Shown in pieces: positions 1 to 14,581 of a stretch of DNA of 64,000 bases. Made by a program: the position numbers and the translations under genes. Positions within the stretch are counted from its first letter, which is position 1. Each line of letters opens with the position of its first letter. The notes beneath the pieces were generated by a model. The model saw only the letters and a program-made list of their open reading frames with translations, made no database searches and was not told where the DNA came from. The stretch lies in the NCBI RefSeq assembly GCF_055900595.2, contig NZ_CM148325.1; one strand, given 5' to 3'.

Positions 1-2
1 TG

Positions 3-1514
<1,512 letters not shown>

Positions 1515-1525
1515 GAGCGGCGGTT

Positions 1526-2416
1526 ATGATGTTTAAGCAATACCTGCAAGTAACGAAACCAGGCATCATCTTTGGCAACCTGATCTCGGTGATTGGGGGA
1601 TTCCTGCTGGCCTCAAAGGGCAGCATTGATTATCCCCTGTTTATCTACACGCTGGTTGGGGTGTCACTGGTTGTGGCGTCGGGTTGTGTGTTTAACAACT
1701 ACATCGACAGGGATATCGACAGAAAGATGGAAAGGACGAAGAATCGGGTGCTGGTTAAGGGCCTGATCTCTCCTGCTGTCTCGCTGGTGTACGCCACCTT
1801 GCTGGGTATTGCTGGCTTTATGCTGCTGTGGTTTGGCGCGAATCCGCTGGCCTGCTGGCTGGGGGTGATGGGCTTTGTGGTTTATGTCGGCGTCTACAGC
1901 CTGTACATGAAACGCCACTCGGTCTACGGCACGTTGATTGGTTCGCTCTCCGGCGCAGCGCCGCCGGTGATTGGCTACTGTGCAGTGACAGGCGAGTTCG
2001 ATAGCGGCGCAGCGATCCTGCTGGCTATCTTCAGCCTGTGGCAGATGCCTCACTCTTATGCCATCGCCATTTTCCGCTTTAAGGATTATCAGGCGGCAAA
2101 CATTCCGGTGCTGCCAGTGGTGAAAGGCATTTCGGTAGCGAAAAACCACATTACGCTGTATATCATCGCCTTTGCCGTTGCCACGCTGATGCTCTCTCTT
2201 GGCGGTTACGCTGGGTATAAATATCTGGTGGTCGCCGCGGCGGTTAGCGTCTGGTGGTTAGGTATGGCCCTGCGCGGTTATAAAGTTGCTGATGACAGAA
2301 TCTGGGCGCGCAAGCTATTCGGCTTCTCGATCATCGCCATCACTGCCCTCTCGGTAATGATGTCCGTTGATTTTATGGTGCCGGACTCGCATACGCTGCT
2401 GGCTGCTGTGTGGTAA
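1526..2416 (+). CDS. cyoE: heme O synthase (protoheme IX farnesyltransferase)
   Basis: Start set to [16 protein letters not shown] (296 aa); UbiA-family polytopic membrane protein. Confidence 0.93.
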
Positions 2417-2430
2417 CACAACCTCTCTAT

Positions 2431-2459
2431 AAAAAAGGTGCTACGGCACCTTTTTTATT
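2431..2459. terminator. rho-independent terminator after cyoE
   Basis: aaaaaaGGTGCtacgGCACCttttttatt: GC stem flanked by A-run and T-run, so potentially bidirectional. Confidence 0.8.
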
Positions 2460-2469
2460 GTCTGAGAAC

Positions 2470-2547
2470 AGAGATACGGCTAATAACCGTATCTCTTGAC
2501 AGAGTGAGTATATGCACATAAATTAATCATACGGTTGATAGCCGTAT
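2470..2547 (+). promoter_or_regulatory. putative promoter/operator of the toxin-antitoxin operon
   Basis: Perfect 10-bp inverted repeat agagatacgg/ccgtatctct (2470..2496) overlaps TTGACA (2496..2501); a second atacgg/ccgtat palindrome at 2529..2547 shares the same core. Confidence 0.5.
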
Positions 2548-2600
2548 TATGCATGAGATCGACTCCCTACGATTTCATTCAGTTAATCAAAGAGGTCATA

Positions 2601-2912
2601 ATGCCTGGAAAAACAGTCGCTCTACCCGATATCGATAAAACGCTGAAAAATGCGCGGGTTGAACTCAAAACCAGTCCCGACGCCAAAAACAAACTTCGTG
2701 AAGCTGCGCAAGCCGTTGGGGTAGATTTAAGCGCTTTTATTTTGAGCGCAGCTATGGAACGCGCCGAAAGTGTGCTTGATAACCAACGTCGCCGTGAGCT
2801 TTCGAATCAAAGCTGGGAACTGATGAACCAACTCATCGCTGAACCTGCTCAACCGACGCTCGCCCTCAAGGCGTTAATGAAAAGGAAAAACAGCGATGGT
2901 CGACAAGCATGA
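2601..2912 (+). CDS. DUF1778-type antitoxin (TacA/AtaR/ItaR-like) of a GNAT toxin-antitoxin pair
   Basis: 103 aa from ATG 2601 with AGAGG Shine-Dalgarno upstream; the ORF-track start at 2535 is a non-ATG extension; immediately precedes and overlaps a GNAT ORF. Confidence 0.7.
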   Translation: MPGKTVALPDIDKTLKNARVELKTSPDAKNKLREAAQAVGVDLSAFILSAAMERAESVLDNQRRRELSNQSWELMNQLIAEPAQPTLALKALMKRKNSDGRQA

Positions 2913-3438
2913 AGAGATTACTCTGCCCATAGTCCTCTCCTGTAATTATCAGTCTGATATTACTTATCCTGGGCAAAAACAGTTTGATTGCGGTAACCCT
3001 GTTATCGATAAATTTGTACGCGCATCGCTAAAGAAAAGTGTGCGTAATAGCGACTGTGCTGCTAAAGCACTTATTGACAGACAAAGTGGTGAACTGATTG
3101 GCATCTGTACTTTTACGGCATATTCGCTGGAAAAACAACGCGTTTCTGGCGTCCTTCAGGGTTCACAACCTTCAGAGATTGGTGTTGTCAGATTAGTCAT
3201 GTTAGGGGTAGCGCGGAAATATCAAAAGCGGGGCTTTGGTCAGGACCTACTATGTGATTTTTTTGAACATGTAAAAATAATTCACCGGGCATTACCAATT
3301 AAAGGGGTTTATCTTGATGCTGACCCTGCCGCCATTAACTTTTATACTCGTCTCGGCTTTGTTCAGCTTTCAGCGAGGCCCAATGTTTTCGGTGCTGTAC
3401 CGATGTTTTTAGCGATTCAGCATATTCTCGCGGCTTAG
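2896..3438 (+). CDS. GNAT-family acetyltransferase toxin (TacT/AtaT/ItaT-like, predicted aminoacyl-tRNA acetylating)
   Basis: 180 aa; overlaps the upstream antitoxin by 17 nt; FDCG motif near N-terminus and Q-x-x-G-x-G acetyl-CoA motif (YQKRGFGQ). Confidence 0.7.
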   Translation: MVDKHEEITLPIVLSCNYQSDITYPGQKQFDCGNPVIDKFVRASLKKSVRNSDCAAKALIDRQSGELIGICTFTAYSLEKQRVSGVLQGSQPSEIGVVRLVMLGVARKYQKRGFGQDLLCDFFEHVKIIHRALPIKGVYLDADPAAINFYTRLGFVQLSARPNVFGAVPMFLAIQHILAA

Positions 3439-3682
3439 ATTATTATCGCCTCCGGCCATGGCAAGTTTTGCCTCAGCCGGAGACTGAGCAGCGTTACCAC
3501 TTTTGTTCAATTGCCCCCGCTTTCATCAGGTCCACATCCTTGCCTTTAATGGTTGCCGTTGCGGCAACGATCGTGGTCCTTATAGCTGCACAAGATTTTC
3601 GTTCAAATTCCGGTTTATAAAGAATAAGCAACGAATTACTGGTAAATGAATCAAGCCGGTAATCTGTAAAGTTAATATCCAG

Positions 3683-4429
3683 TCAGTTTAAGCCGAAAGG
3701 TGCAAAGCCGACCGTTTGAATAGTTTCCTTACCTGACGGACTCTTGATGTTGTACGTAACACGAAGATTGGCCACTTCGCCTAATTTATTGGTTTTGGCA
3801 AAGAGGCTATCCATGCAGGAAAAACCTTTATCTAAAAAATTATCCCGCATTCCAGAACGGGTAATCGTGATCACCGGTAACGTATCGTCAACCGTTTTTC
3901 TGTCAATCATATCTTTTCGACAGGCGGCCATAAAGTCTTCCGGACCAGCATAAATGTGAACACCCTTATCAAGATATTCTTTCGCTTTACTACAATCCAC
4001 CTCGACATACTGACCATTGGCGTACATCATGCCCAACCTGGACCATGCTAAATTCACACCGCGTTGCGTAGCCTGATTAAATAACGTATACGCTTTGGCG
4101 TAATCCACTCGCACCTGTTCACCTTCGTAGTAGATATTCCCCAGCGCTAACGGAGCTTCTTCATCACCTTGTTTAGCGGCTAACTCGAACCATTTAATGG
4201 CTTCCTGAACGTTGGGTTTGGTATCGTAGCGGGGCTGATAATATTCCCAGCCTAACAGGCTTTGCGCGTCGACATCCCCCGACTCAGCCATTTTATACAG
4301 TGTCCTTATCACATCGGGGGCAGGCTTTTCACTGTATATGCTGTCATACAATTCATGCGCTTTCTCGCTTGCCAGTGAACCTTGTGAGGCAATTAATAAA
4401 ATAGCCAATAAACTCTTTTTATTTAACAT
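3683..4429 (-). CDS. secreted Sel1/TPR-like repeat protein with an uncharacterised C-terminal domain
   Basis: 248 aa; N-terminal signal peptide MLNKKSLLAILLIASQGSLA; Sel1-like repeats (AAKQGDEEAPLALGNIYYEG, ATQRGVNLAWSRLGMMYANG); AT-rich. Confidence 0.65.
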   Translation of the reverse strand: MLNKKSLLAILLIASQGSLASEKAHELYDSIYSEKPAPDVIRTLYKMAESGDVDAQSLLGWEYYQPRYDTKPNVQEAIKWFELAAKQGDEEAPLALGNIYYEGEQVRVDYAKAYTLFNQATQRGVNLAWSRLGMMYANGQYVEVDCSKAKEYLDKGVHIYAGPEDFMAACRKDMIDRKTVDDTLPVITITRSGMRDNFLDKGFSCMDSLFAKTNKLGEVANLRVTYNIKSPSGKETIQTVGFAPFGLN

Positions 4430-4845
4430 AAATAACCTTTATGCATCCATCACTATATTTTTCAATATACCTAACCACCAAACATCCACTTCATGAATAA
4501 ATACACAGCCATAACAACCTCAGGTAATAAGTAAACATTTAAGCTGAAGCAGAATAACCAGCACCTCCAACACCTCTATTTATTGCGATAAAATAACACC
4601 ATCCTTTAATAAAAAATAACACACTCATCAACAAATCCGAAAATAATATCATTCGTGGCAGGATAAAATCAGGCGAGCTTTTCATTTGTTATATTTAACG
4701 CACAAAGTATTAATGGCAAGAATACGAGAGAAGCGCATGCCTGACGTAAAAATCACGCTCTTATGTAATATTTACTCATTAACACTCTGTTTACCCAACA
4801 TGCGCTCCGCACTACACTATGTGGGCAATTTTTTAAGAGGTGGTA

Positions 4846-6210
4846 ATGAACGATTATAAAATGACGCCAGGTGAGCGGCGCGCGACCTGGGGTTTAGGGA
4901 CCGTATTTTCATTGCGCATGCTGGGCATGTTTATGGTACTGCCGGTTCTAACTACGTACGGTATGGCACTGCAAGGTGCCAGTGAAGCATTAATCGGTAT
5001 TGCCATTGGTATTTATGGCCTGACTCAGGCCGTTTTTCAGATTCCGTTTGGCCTGCTTTCCGACCGCATTGGTCGCAAACCATTAATTGTCGGCGGGCTG
5101 GCGGTGTTTGCCGCCGGTAGCGTTATCGCTGCGCTTTCCGACTCTATCTGGGGAATTATTCTGGGCCGGGCGTTACAAGGTTCTGGAGCGATTGCCGCTG
5201 CCGTTATGGCGCTACTTTCTGATCTCACGCGCGAACAAAACCGCACCAAAGCGATGGCGTTTATCGGCGTGAGTTTTGGCATTACCTTCGCCATTGCGAT
5301 GGTACTTGGCCCTATCATCACTCACAAACTTGGACTGCACGCGCTATTCTGGATGATCGCTATTCTGGCAACGACCGGTATTGCGTTGACCATTTGGGTT
5401 GTGCCCAACAGCAGCACGCACGTACTTAATCGTGAGTCCGGAATGGTGAAAGGCAGTTTCAGCAAAGTGCTGGCAGAACCGCGACTGCTGAAACTCAACT
5501 TCGGCATTATGTGTCTGCACATGCTGCTGATGTCGACGTTTGTTGCCCTGCCCGGACAGTTGGCTGATGCGGGGTTCCCGGCGGCTGAGCACTGGAAGGT
5601 CTATCTGGCGACGATGTTAATCGCCTTTGGCTCGGTTGTGCCTTTCATTATCTACGCGGAAGTTAAGCGCAAAATGAAGCAAGTCTTTGTCTTCTGCGTC
5701 GGGCTGATCGTGGTTGCGGAAATTGTGTTGTGGAACGCACAAACGCAGTTCTGGCAACTGGTGGTCGGCGTGCAGCTTTTCTTTGTGGCGTTTAATTTGA
5801 TGGAAGCCCTCCTCCCCTCGCTTGTCAGTAAAGAGTCGCCAGCCGGTTACAAAGGTACGGCGATGGGCGTTTACTCCACCAGCCAGTTTCTTGGCGTGGC
5901 CATTGGCGGTTCGCTGGGTGGCTGGATTGACGGCATGTTTGACGGTCAGGGCGTATTTCTCGCTGGCGCAATGCTGGCCGCTGTGTGGCTGGCTGTCGCC
6001 AGTACCATGAAAGAACCGCCGTATGTCAGCAGTTTGCGCATTGAAATCCCATCGGACATTGCCGCAAACGAGACGTTAAAAGTGCGTTTGATGGAAACTG
6101 CGGGTGTCAAAGAAGTGTTGATTGCAGAAGAAGAACATTCAGCTTATGTGAAAATCGACAGCAAAGTGACGAATCGCTTTGAGGTTGAACAGGCAATTCG
6201 TCAGGCATAA
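4846..6210 (+). CDS. yajR: MFS transporter YajR
   Basis: 454 aa from ATG 4846 (MNDYKMTPGERRATWGLG); multi-TM MFS protein. Confidence 0.92.
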   Translation: MNDYKMTPGERRATWGLGTVFSLRMLGMFMVLPVLTTYGMALQGASEALIGIAIGIYGLTQAVFQIPFGLLSDRIGRKPLIVGGLAVFAAGSVIAALSDSIWGIILGRALQGSGAIAAAVMALLSDLTREQNRTKAMAFIGVSFGITFAIAMVLGPIITHKLGLHALFWMIAILATTGIALTIWVVPNSSTHVLNRESGMVKGSFSKVLAEPRLLKLNFGIMCLHMLLMSTFVALPGQLADAGFPAAEHWKVYLATMLIAFGSVVPFIIYAEVKRKMKQVFVFCVGLIVVAEIVLWNAQTQFWQLVVGVQLFFVAFNLMEALLPSLVSKESPAGYKGTAMGVYSTSQFLGVAIGGSLGGWIDGMFDGQGVFLAGAMLAAVWLAVASTMKEPPYVSSLRIEIPSDIAANETLKVRLMETAGVKEVLIAEEEHSAYVKIDSKVTNRFEVEQAIRQA

Positions 6211-6222
6211 AAAACGAGGCGA

Positions 6223-6312
6223 ATTGCCTGTTGCGCTACGCATATCAGGCCTACAAAGTTCCTGAGTGACAAATCTTTGTAGGCCGAATCAGGCGTTCAT
6301 GCCGCATCTGAC
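6223..6312. repeat. REP/BIME palindromic units
   Basis: Two inverted REP-like units (gcctgttgcgctacgcatatcaggcctac ... gtaggccgaatcaggcgttcatgccgcatctgac) downstream of yajR. Confidence 0.75.
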
Positions 6313-6337
6313 ATGAACAAAGCGCAGGTTGTCGCGA

Positions 6338-6829
6338 TTAATCGCGGAAGTTTTTGAACTGGAACGGCTGACCCAGATCGCCACCACGTACCATCGCCAT
6401 GACAGCCTGCAAATCATCACGAGATTTGCCCGTCACACGGATCTCATCGCCCTGAATTTGCGCCTGCACTTTCAGTTTGCTGTCTTTGATCATCTTGACG
6501 ATTTTCTTCTGGGTCGCGCTTTCAATGCCCTGTTTCAGTTTCGCTTCCACAAACCAGGTTTTACCGCTATGAACGATATTTTCCGGTACATCCAGCGAAC
6601 TGCCTTCAATGCCGCGCTTCAGCAGCTTGGCACGCAGAATATCCAGCAACTGATTGACCTGGAAGTCGGACTCGCTCAACACTTTGATGGTTTTGCTGGC
6701 GTCGTTCAGCTCAAATGAGGCTTCAACGTTACGGAAGTCAAAACGGGACTCCACTTCGCGGCTCGCGTTATCGACCGCGTTTCGTGCTTCCTGAAGATCA
6801 ACTTCAGAGACAATATCGAAAGATGGCAT
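6338..6829 (-). CDS. yajQ: nucleotide-binding protein YajQ (UPF0234)
   Basis: 163 aa from [20 protein letters not shown]; the ORF-track 56-aa N-terminal extension was not used. Confidence 0.92.
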
Positions 6830-6908
6830 CTTTTCCTCTCCCTTCATTTTTGATGCGAAGCATAATACCTGCAAAGTTAAATAACCGACAGTCCTGCACC
6901 AGGACGTA

Positions 6909-6952
6909 TCCCTTAATTGTGCATAGTCGCAACAGCATGCACAATTAAGGGA
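6909..6952. promoter_or_regulatory. 16-bp perfect inverted repeat in the divergent yajQ-panE intergenic region
   Basis: tcccttaattgtgcat (6909..6924) and atgcacaattaaggga (6937..6952) with a 12-nt spacer. Confidence 0.5.
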
Positions 6953-6996
6953 TAGCCTTATTGAACACCCGGAGTGGTTGCGGGTGAGGAGGAACA

Positions 6997-8461
<1,465 letters not shown>

Positions 8462-8476
8462 TGTCGGATGCGGCAA

Positions 8477-8502
8477 ACGTCGCATCTGACCAGATGCGAC
8501 GT
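8477..8502. terminator. REP-like perfect hairpin between convergent yajL and thiI
   Basis: acgtcgcatctg-ac-cagatgcgacgt, 12-nt arms. Confidence 0.6.
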
Positions 8503-8514
8503 AAAAACCACAAA

Positions 8515-9963
8515 TTACGGACGATACACCTTCACATTGTTAAAGCCCTGCTCGCGTAGATAGAGCGCCTGCAGGCGGCTCATCACCCCGCGCTCACACC
8601 ACAACAGCCAGGTTTTGTTCTGGTCGAGATCGCCAAATTTGGTGCTCAGTTTATAGAACGGCAGAGAAACCACGTCGATACCTTCAACTCTCAGCGGCTT
8701 ATCTTCTTGTTCATCAACAGAACGGATATCGAGGATCACGTCGTTCGGGCCGAAGCCGTTGACGGTTTCCACTTCCACCACTTCCTGCTCGGTCTGCTGA
8801 GCGATTTCGCGGATATCAACGTTATTCGCTTCCTCAACCACTTTATCGAGAATGCTGAAGTCGAACTTCTCTTCTTCCGCTTCAATCTTCGATTTAACCG
8901 CTTTCACCGTCGGGCTTTTGGAGATAACACCGCAGTATTCCGGCATGGTGCGGGCAAAATCTTCGGTGCCAATCTGGCGAGCCAGGTTGATGATGTGCTC
9001 TTTGTCGTAAGAGATCAGCGGACGCAGGATCAGCGTATCGGAGACGTTATCAATCAGGCGCAGGTTGGTTAGCGTCTGGCTGGACACCTGTCCCAGCGCT
9101 TCGCCGGTGACGAGCGCCTGTACGCCGTAACGTTCAGCCACTTTAGACGCGGCACGCACCATCATACGTTTGAGGATTACGCCCATCTGACCGTCGTCGA
9201 TTTTCTCGAGAATTTCACCGACGACCGGCTCAAAGTTAATGGCGACAAAACGCACGCGGTGGGAGCTACCAAAACGGTTCCACAGATAATGCGCCACCTG
9301 ACGAACACCAATTTCATGCGCCGCGCCGCCGAGATTAAAGAAGCAGTAATGCACGCGGCAGCCGCGACGCATTAACATATAACTGGAAACACCGGAGTCG
9401 AAACCACCGGAAATAAGCGACAGTACATCTTCCTGGGTGCCGATTGGGAAACCGCCAATGCCTTCGTAGCGGCCTTTGATCAGCAGGAGACGATCGTCTT
9501 CAACTTCCAGATGGACAGTCACATCCGGATTGGTCAGCTTCACGCGCGCGGATTCAATATGCTGATTTAAACCGCCGCCGACGTAACGTTCCACATCAAT
9601 CGAGCTAAACTCATGCTTACCACGGCGCTTCACGCGTACGCAGAAGGTTTTACCTTCCAGCTGCTCGCGATACTGAACCAACGCTTTCTCGAAAATATCG
9701 TGCATGTCGGTAAACGGCACGTCTTCGACTTCGAGAATATGGTGGATACCCGGAATACGGGTCAGGGCGTCGCGAATAGCCAGACGCTGGTTTTCATCTT
9801 TTGCGCGAACTTCGATGTTATCCCAGTGGCGGACGACAGCGAGCGTCTCATCATAGTGCTTTAAAACGTTACGAATGTTCCCGGTAAGGATTTTTATAAA
9901 GCGCAAGCGCACAGATTGGCTTTTGATGGTGATTTCCGGGAACAATTTAATGATAAACTTCAT
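8515..9963 (-). CDS. thiI: tRNA 4-thiouridine synthase / thiamine biosynthesis protein ThiI
   Basis: 482 aa; THUMP + PP-loop (SGGFDSGV) + C-terminal rhodanese. Confidence 0.95.
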
Positions 9964-14351: not shown

Positions 14352-14581
14352 ATTTCGCTTTTCACCCATTTTATCTGCTGAATTCCCCATCGTCTGCGAT
14401 GATGGGGACAACGTACCTCCCATCATCTTCTGTAACCATAATCCACCTCTGCAAGAGAAATTCTTGGTGAATGAGTTTGCAGCTATTCATCATCTTCATC
14501 CCTTTGAGCGATTTTTGATAGTTTCTCCAGGTAATATCCCCTAAAACTGTCTTATTTAGTCAATGTAAGAGGATTACAATC

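Follow-up and report, generated by a model that had tools for sequence, protein, structure and literature searches.

The cyoE-yajR gap of Escherichia coli as a probable old variable locus, here holding the ItaRT toxin-antitoxin pair and a broken exported Sel1-repeat gene

Background

A stretch of 64,000 nucleotides (nt) from contig NZ_CM148325.1 of the RefSeq assembly GCF_055900595.2, hereafter the window, carries roughly 2.4 kb of DNA between cyoE and yajR (positions 2417-4845), two genes which in Escherichia coli K-12 are separated by a short gap. The additional DNA holds a toxin-antitoxin (TA) pair, itaRT, and a gene for an exported protein with Sel1 repeats, and the question raised by this locus is whether it entered the chromosome recently or is one of several long-standing forms of the gap. 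An earlier note, made from the letters of the window alone, had proposed an accessory insertion just downstream of the cyoE terminator. The comparison with other genomes suggests another answer, to which a probability of roughly 0.78 is assigned, namely that the chromosome has long been variable between cyoE and yajR and that the gap, which in this strain holds ItaRT and a broken exported-Sel1 gene, is not the site of a recent insertion. "Accessory" is the right word for the segment, and "insertion" probably the wrong one.

The evidence comes mainly from the same gap in other enteric lineages. Pseudocitrobacter has the same gene order with a synonymous divergence (dS) comparable to that of the flanking genes, the junction between the terminator and the itaRT promoter is conserved between the two genera, and paralogues of the Sel1 gene lie between cyoE and yajR in E. 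albertii, in Escherichia sp. E4930 and MOD1-EC7003, and in Salmonella. The segment looks like an insertion when it is compared with K-12, which appears to be a poor "ancestral" reference, and should rather be seen as one of the forms taken by an old locus that recombines. Its components are already known; what may be new is an old variable locus spanning several genera, with exported Sel1/beta-sandwich proteins as its persistent residents. In the literature searched, no description of a cyoE-yajR island was found, the only paper naming both genes was unrelated, and the BL21 and HS locus tags of the neighbouring genes appeared solely in the ItaRT paper. The main practical value of the analysis lies in correct labelling.

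Results and discussion

The variable segment in the window and in E. coli

The features of the interval, in window coordinates, are as follows.

2416: end of cyoE
2429-2458, + strand: intrinsic terminator of cyoE and left boundary of the variable segment, a bidirectional A6-stem-loop-stem-T6 hairpin
2460-4766: segment without a counterpart alignable by BLAST in K-12-type "empty" E. coli (blastn against the K-12-like genome L001)
2474-2547, + strand: promoter and putative operator region of itaRT
2601-2912, + strand: itaR, antitoxin of 103 aa, RHH/DUF1778, TacA family
2896-3438, + strand: itaT, GNAT toxin of 180 codons
3449-3484: stable hairpin, predicted by folding, between the convergent stops of itaT and of the full-length Sel1 gene
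3494-4429, - strand: Sel1-repeat gene in its full extent of 936 nt, a pseudogene with a premature TGA at 3683-3685
3683-4429, - strand: Sel1 open reading frame (ORF) of 248 aa, as first read from the ORF list
4430-4845: AT-rich, putative divergent control region, comprising the region upstream of Sel1 (leftward) and the yajR promoter
4790-4795 and 4813-4818: -35 (TTTACC) and -10 (TACACT) hexamers of the yajR promoter, proposed from their conservation
4846: start of yajR

In the blastn comparison with L001 the window aligned over 700-2459 and 4767-6600, which leaves 2,307 bp extra at 2460-4766, where L001 has about 25 nt; the entire cyoE-yajR gap of this K-12-like genome measures 148 bp. The earlier note had assumed a short K-12 gap, had estimated the extra DNA at about 2.4 kb with junctions to be defined by alignment, and had placed the left edge at the cyoE terminator, all of which agrees with these data, the edge lying exactly after the T-run of the terminator. 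The latter is composed of perfect 13-nt arms, a 4-nt loop and the T-run, with a folding energy of -17.2 kcal/mol (z = -8.0). On the right there is no sharp edge: homology to K-12 extends over about 100 nt ahead of yajR, at an identity of only about 60%, and the dimorphic stretch therefore appears effectively to reach the ribosome-binding site of yajR, at about 4835. The very AT-rich tract which had been pointed out ahead of yajR was likewise recovered, at 4430-4845, with a GC content of 32-36% against about 50-55% in its flanks. Of the three extra genes counted at that stage, the TA pair and the Sel1 ORF are present, but the latter proved to be a nonsense-truncated pseudogene. Over 2400-4800 the GC content is 32-50%, compared with 50-60% in cyo and yajR, a difference compatible with a foreign origin and equally with an AT-rich regulatory region.

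The distribution of the segment was surveyed in 5,426 complete E. coli genomes. The whole segment is present in 1,366 of them, itaRT in 1,368 and the Sel1 gene in 1,369 (about 25%), and every carrier has a single copy, always between cyoE and yajR, so that the accessory status claimed earlier holds for the species. The remaining genomes have the short gap; examples are K-12, O157:H7, a canine uropathogenic E. coli (UPEC) isolate, ST69 and ESC53083, whose empty sites are 99% identical to one another and share a single junction. Across 27 kb, the window is 95-99% identical to the K-12-like genome, and the 5% divergence of yajR from K-12, considered as a sign of hitch-hiking, was rejected as such because the whole window lies in that range.

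The same gap in other lineages

A Pseudocitrobacter metagenome-assembled genome (L014) and a similar metagenome contig (L009) share the order cyoE, itaR, itaT, a 308-aa Sel1 gene and a second Sel1 gene of 478 or 494 aa, with yajR following next in L009. Their products are 82-86% (itaR), 89% (itaT) and 58-59% (308-aa Sel1) identical to those of the window at the amino acid level. Between the window and Pseudocitrobacter, dS is 0.55-0.61 for itaR and 2.6 for itaT, values comparable to the 0.69-0.79 of cyoE and the 1.5 of yajR, which argues that the TA genes have been at this site for about as long as the genes on either side. The junction is also shared: in both genera the terminator is followed by TTTTTTATTGTCTG and then by the operators, and the T6-ATTGTCTG junction is conserved between E. 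coli and Pseudocitrobacter together with the operator palindromes. The Pseudocitrobacter terminator is homologous, both arms of its stem having changed with pairing kept (GGTGC/GCACC vs CCCGC/GCGGG), and within E. coli the terminator is identical in K-12-like empty sites and in island-bearing genomes. On contig L009 (5984-6220) itaT is reduced to residues 11-89 and itaR is intact; loss of the toxin first is the usual way in which a TA pair decays.

Within Escherichia, the neighbours of the Sel1 genes vary. E. albertii (L007) has a 311-aa Sel1 gene and, between it and cyoE, where itaRT would be, a gene for an unrelated 325-aa protein with a signal peptide (5048-6025), for which Pfam and NCBIfam returned no matches. 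The gap of Escherichia sp. E4930 contains Sel1 genes of 499 and 312 aa without a TA pair, and that of MOD1-EC7003 (L013) contains a Sel1 gene and, between this and cyoE, a 315-aa ORF (4812-5759) that by eye looks like a 5'-truncated amidohydrolase. In Salmonella the gap is also found in two states. Salmonella Cerro (L021, 472-3464) has two large Sel1 genes, of 489 and 503 aa, in a gap of 3,576 bp, and other Salmonella enterica (L022, 3781-4000) have a gap of 220 bp with palindromes resembling repetitive extragenic palindromic elements, an identical YajR protein and flanks which are 98-99% identical. In Citrobacter (L024, 2900-3750) two DUF1493 genes lie between cyoE and yajR.

These genomes also bear on the AT-rich tract. 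From 4465 onward it is 94% identical to the E4930 DNA that precedes the 499-aa Sel1 paralogue, and because of this alignment it can be read as the control region of a Sel1 operon whose first gene would have been lost in E. coli and E. albertii; one alignment to E. albertii covers 3510-7000, the tract included, at about 91% identity. The possibility that the tract is itself a decayed second Sel1 gene was rejected, since a tblastn search of 4430-4845 with the 499-aa paralogue gave no match.

Promoter types and mosaic alleles

Occupied and empty forms differ more in the yajR promoter region than their flanks would suggest. Between E. coli HS (occupied) and K-12 (empty), identity is 99.8% over the 400 nt at the 3' end of cyoE and the 550 nt at the 5' end of yajR, and 59% over the 100 nt upstream of yajR; the corresponding figure upstream of yajR for occupied vs empty Salmonella is 61%, again between flanks of 98-99%. 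The -35 and -10 hexamers of yajR and their 17-nt spacing are conserved in all eight haplotypes compared (8/8), and the spacer and leader differ by occupancy class. From the -35 TTTACC to the yajR start codon, K-12 is 88% identical to Citrobacter, 78% to empty Salmonella and 71-74% to occupied E. coli, and the core promoter of the window is 81% identical to that of Pseudocitrobacter. A recent origin of the K-12 form by deletion from an allele of the HS type therefore seems unlikely, a conclusion held with moderate confidence.

The segment itself is a mosaic. The Sel1 allele of the window is found at 95% identity or more in 18 genomes, and the other 1,351 of the 1,369 Sel1 carriers have an allele that is about 85% identical to it. 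At the nucleotide level the window allele is 92% identical to that of E. albertii (dS 0.17) and 87% identical to the common E. coli allele (dS 0.42); between the allele classes within E. coli, dS amounts to 0.36-0.42, above the divergence of cyoE or yajR between E. coli and E. albertii. Strain CE10 combines an itaRT that is 99.6% identical to that of the window in nucleotides with the common Sel1 allele (87%). Compared with HS, the window is 95-100% identical over the TA genes and 52-77% over the 5' end of Sel1 and the AT-rich tract, the values for the tract itself being 52-75%.

Origin of the segment

The simplest reading of these observations is that the gap exists in an occupied and an empty form, which differ in their type of yajR promoter, would both be long-lived and would replace one another within a species through homologous recombination in the flanking cyoE and yajR. 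Sel1 genes would reside in the gap persistently, next to alternative neighbours of which itaRT is one. That old alternative forms with distinct promoters are exchanged through recombination in the flanks is proposed with moderate confidence, as the sequences concerned are short. In all of the approximately 1,367 E. coli carriers and in Pseudocitrobacter, itaRT adjoins the fast-evolving exported Sel1 gene, which gives rise to the testable idea that itaRT stabilises it, acting perhaps as an addiction module that slows the loss of the segment.

Several points weigh against an old locus of this kind. The argument from promoter classes spans about 60-100 nt and some 8-15 base differences, over which convergence under shared regulation is possible. 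The dS values of itaT (2.6) and yajR (1.5) approach saturation, and the NG86 method is noisy when applied to 100-450 codons. A Sel1 gene of the 311-aa type occurs in only 2 of about 100,000 species-representative genomes, so that an ancient origin needs very many losses, or lateral spread of the cassette together with its junctions. The single junction shared by the E. coli empty sites of five lineages fits one deletion followed by spread. Finally, the addiction-type role of itaRT is a proposal, the significance of the pair for its host being unknown according to the authors who described it (PMC6125619).

A more ambitious version of the same history holds that an ancient two-state polymorphism across Escherichia, Salmonella and Pseudocitrobacter has persisted over tens of millions of years because balancing selection, arising from interaction with hosts or from conflict between bacteria, maintained both states, which recombination in the flanks would reshuffle. 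The occupied cassette would comprise fast-evolving exported Sel1/IrmA-fold proteins and its own type of yajR promoter, guarded in some lineages by ItaRT as an addiction module, and the empty one would have a different promoter type; we consider this unlikely.

A simple deletion would dispense with a long-lived empty allele altogether: the ancestor of E. coli would have been occupied, and the K-12 gap, which then spread vertically and by recombination, would stem from a single deletion that began at the terminator T-run and stopped shortly before the yajR promoter. The occupied state of the outgroup Escherichia lineages and of Pseudocitrobacter fits this history, as do the single junction and 99% identity of the K-12, O157, UPEC, ST69 and ESC53083 sites, the E. 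coli-specific terminator stem common to empty and occupied alleles, and a weak alignment of the K-12 spacer to the last 40-120 nt of the occupied allele. Yet a deletion that leaves the promoter in place is hard to reconcile with the 100 nt beside it, which in K-12 are 59-60% identical to occupied E. coli between coding flanks 99.8% identical to HS, with a K-12 core promoter nearer to those of Citrobacter and empty Salmonella than to that of occupied E. coli, and with the independent occurrence of both states in Salmonella. A history of deletion alone is thus held to be rather improbable.

The weakest candidate is the one raised at the outset, a recent discrete insertion, in which the K-12 state is ancestral and a small mobile or recombination-borne island of itaRT and Sel1 landed directly behind the cyoE terminator in some E. 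coli lineages. It draws on the absence of the segment from 75% of E. coli genomes, K-12 included, on a GC content below that of the flanks, on the sharp left breakpoint directly after the terminator T-run, and on the nature of TA modules as typical cargo of mobile DNA, distant itaRT-like pairs (65-71% identity) being indeed carried by true plasmids of Citrobacter, Serratia and Rahnella. The hallmarks of mobility were missing, however. As the earlier note had stated, no integrase, transposase or recombinase was present among the ORFs of the interval or the RefSeq annotations (itaR, itaT and the Sel1 gene being those run against protein-family libraries), and no tRNA gene lies in window positions 1-9000. 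No flanking direct repeats, terminal inverted repeats or target-site duplication were detected, the only repeats being short, of low identity and chance-like. The segment was never found elsewhere in the genome, and it is absent from real plasmids or phages: the E. coli "plasmid" matches are records of 1.2-4.8 Mb, and the two "phage" matches, OR845150.1 (6.5 kb) and OR844664.1 (2.3 kb), are unannotated fragments, 97-98% identical to window 2460-3544, which are probably host DNA and not phage genomes. With the conserved order, junction and flank-like dS of Pseudocitrobacter, the Sel1 paralogues in the gap of four other lineages, and E. coli Sel1 allele classes that differ more in dS than cyoE or yajR does between E. 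coli and E. albertii added to this, a recent insertion is very improbable.

The ItaRT toxin-antitoxin pair

Within the old variable locus that is preferred here, the TA pair can be identified as the already characterised ItaRT of E. coli HS/BL21, and the generic label "GNAT toxin and antitoxin" can be replaced with the name of an aminoacyl-tRNA-acetylating system known biochemically and structurally. The two genes lie on the same strand, itaR upstream of itaT with an overlap of 17 nt, at the same chromosomal site as in HS. ItaT is identical to PDB entry 7BYY at 175 of 180 residues (E 1.3e-115), that entry being the G115D variant of HS ItaT (PMC7367177), and to wild-type HS ItaT at 176 of 180 (97.8%), with the differences Q131R, A151T, T161R and A164V. 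ItaR shares 100 of 103 residues with HS ItaR (differences A6V, T7A and V11I), and its matches in the PDB are KacA (E 3.5e-11) and DUF1778 antitoxins (E 8.6e-9); RefSeq labels its product as a DUF1778/TacA-family antitoxin, and the Pseudocitrobacter orthologue matches Pfam TacA1. The exact protein pair WP_001353405.1/WP_000227787.1 is also present in CE10, 2013C-4282 and EC42405.

The HS toxin acetylates Ile-tRNA and is neutralised by ItaR, and a promoter in the 172 bp upstream of itaRT is repressed by the ItaR-ItaT complex and not by ItaR alone (Wilcox et al. 2018, PMC6125619); the same authors noted the pair in BL21(DE3) and called its significance for the host unknown. Val- and Met-tRNA were subsequently added as substrates, and V36, I37, F40, M102, G115 and Y150 were found to be functionally required (Zhang et al. 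2020, PMC7367177). All six residues are kept in the window, where the acetyl-CoA loop Q110-K-R-G-F-G115 (Q/RxxGxG/A) and the catalytic Y150 are present, and none of the differences from HS falls at a residue tested in these papers. The operon appears to be intact. Because toxicity, tRNA targets and autoregulation have been shown by others for the HS orthologue, they may be extended to the window pair: ItaT would transfer an acetyl group from acetyl-CoA to the alpha-amino group of charged Ile-tRNA, and less efficiently to that of Val- and Met-tRNA, thereby blocking translation, and ItaR would bind and neutralise the toxin, the complex of the two repressing its own promoter.

A promoter-like site precedes itaR, with -35 TTGACA (2496-2501), 17-nt spacing and -10 TAAATT (2519-2524), matching at 10 of 12 positions. 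It is flanked by two ATACGG-N7-CCGTAT palindromes (2474-2492 and 2529-2547), whose half-sites are conserved in Pseudocitrobacter, as is the -35, and whose 7-nt spacers vary; they are candidate operators for repression by ItaR-ItaT. PADLOC returned nothing for ItaR, ItaT or the Sel1 paralogues except a meaningless 17.7-bit PtuA fragment.

A Sel1 gene broken here and intact elsewhere

In the window strain the Sel1 gene is a pseudogene, and the label "Sel1 protein" next to the TA pair should be changed accordingly. The gene of HS has 936 nt and encodes 311 aa; in the window, a single in-frame stop (TGA 3683-3685, codon 249 of 311) interrupts the frame, which is then open to the normal stop at 3494, and RefSeq marks the gene as a pseudogene with an "internal stop". 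The TGA replaces the codon of R249, a residue invariant in 14 homologues. Seven genomes are 100% identical over 3494-4766 and have the same stop, and the same allele is intact (311 aa) in 2013C-4282 (99.4%) and EC42405 (98.7%). As these close relatives are intact, the nonsense mutation is recent. Through it the protein loses the last third of the beta-sandwich, with four predicted strands at its end and the fourth of the conserved cysteines. In strain 100416 (hit H100), the Sel1 gene is interrupted by IS1, an independent inactivation, and Shigella sonnei has partial Sel1 copies.

The intact protein begins, by inspection, with a Sec-type signal peptide (KK, a hydrophobic core, then SLA|SEK). 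Pfam recognises three Sel1 repeats (PF08238) at residues 54-155, with E-values of 4.5e-7, 5.9e-4 and 6.8e-3, and the AlphaFold2 model has paired helices at 37-154 (pLDDT 83-94, about 90 for the helical-repeat fold) and a beta-sandwich at 187-310; the pLDDT is 75 for the whole chain and rises to 82 when the C-terminal domain is modelled alone. Four cysteines are invariant in the homologues. The predicted C-terminal domain is a beta-sandwich of the fibronectin type III (FNIII)-like kind whose closest solved fold is IrmA (PDB 5EK5). Its family is very small, only 37 of 1.84 billion cluster representatives matching it at E <= 1e-3, and two-domain Sel1/beta-sandwich relatives were seen only in Escherichia, Shigella, Salmonella and Pseudocitrobacter. 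NCBIfam gave only far-sub-threshold, repeat-level matches to the Sel1 proteins (MerG, AlgK, MotX and ExoR), and orthology to these was rejected because such matches reflect Sel1/TPR repeats.

Computed with the intact allele, the ratio of nonsynonymous to synonymous divergence (dN/dS) is 0.2-0.35, with only the signal peptide hypervariable; positive selection was rejected, these values indicating constraint and dN/dS > 1 being unsupported. Relative to Pseudocitrobacter, dN is 0.32 for Sel1, and three to eight times lower, at 0.04-0.11, in the neighbouring genes.

With its Sec signal peptide, its Sel1 repeats and a beta-sandwich that contains a disulfide and has an IrmA-like fold, the intact product may bind other proteins in the periplasm or after secretion, its targets being either host factors or the cell envelope. 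Its gene, convergent to itaRT, would be read from the AT-rich region common with yajR. One consideration tells against this proposal: the likeness of the C-terminal domain to IrmA is at the level of the fold only, a profile of the domain searched against the PDB having retrieved no IrmA chain even at E <= 10. Stand-alone relatives of the domain, considered as a link to IrmA, were rejected, the short matches being fragment-like and unlike IrmA in sequence. In a very small, unstudied family restricted to a few enteric genera, the IrmA-like fold makes host-factor binding worth one experiment.

A different function is conceivable, in which the Sel1 proteins are periplasmic immunity (orphan antidote) proteins against envelope toxins of competitors and the gap is a hotspot of immunity genes. 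Some type VI phospholipase effectors are known to be countered by periplasmic immunity proteins of the Sel1-like kind. Signal peptide, cysteines and fast evolution (dN 0.32 vs 0.04-0.11 in the neighbours) would suit such a role, and so would the tandem divergent paralogues in a gap polymorphic for presence and absence, the frequent decay of the genes by nonsense mutation (window), IS1 (100416) or reduction to partial copies (S. sonnei), and the use of the gap by other small uncharacterised genes, e.g. DUF1493 in Citrobacter. However, genes for toxins, Rhs proteins, contact-dependent inhibition (CDI) or the type VI secretion system (T6SS) adjoin Sel1 in none of the loci examined, the Sel1 proteins are without a match in PADLOC and without a specific match in NCBIfam, and the closest solved fold of the C-terminal domain is a secreted, cytokine-binding protein. 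An immunity role is therefore doubtful.

Other features of the window

For the hairpin at 3449-3484, between the convergent stops, the folding energy is -21 kcal/mol (z = -3.0) when the + strand is folded and -29 kcal/mol (z = -4.3) for the - strand; a U-run is missing after it on both strands, so that a role as intrinsic terminator is unsupported. An Rfam scan of 2300-5000 at E <= 1 gave a sole, sub-threshold match to STnc50 over the cyoE terminator (23.5 bits vs a gathering score of 55), and this structured RNA was rejected. Elsewhere in the window, about 1.9 kb between yajO and pgpA (14352-16291) are also missing from the K-12-like genome; they hold a 509-aa ORF (14582-16111, + strand) with a pentapeptide-repeat-like stretch.

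Comparison with known systems

Repeats, helical solenoid and signal peptide are common to the Sel1/beta-sandwich proteins and the Sel1-like-repeat proteins in general (PF08238), whereas the C-terminal domain belongs to a very small family. IrmA of uropathogenic E. coli is a stand-alone, domain-swapped secreted dimer of 13 kDa that binds the interleukins IL-2, IL-4 and IL-10 (Moriel et al. 2016, PMC4807369); the beta-sandwich of the window family is instead fused to Sel1 repeats, and the two are 18% identical in structural alignment.

For the TA pair the closest system is ItaRT of HS/BL21, with which the window shares the overlapping gene pair, the upstream region and the chromosomal site, and of which it is an allelic variant. 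TacAT of Salmonella, AtaRT of E. coli O157:H7 and KacAT of Klebsiella have the same architecture, a DUF1778 antitoxin followed by a GNAT toxin, and share with ItaRT the chemistry of aminoacyl-tRNA acetylation. As GNAT/RHH systems they are only distantly similar (phmmer E 1e-5 to 1e-9), KacT matching ItaT at E 1.7e-6 and AtaT/TacT-type chains at about 1e-5. Their tRNA specificities also differ from that of ItaT, AtaT targeting initiator Met-tRNA and TacT several others, according to the papers cited.

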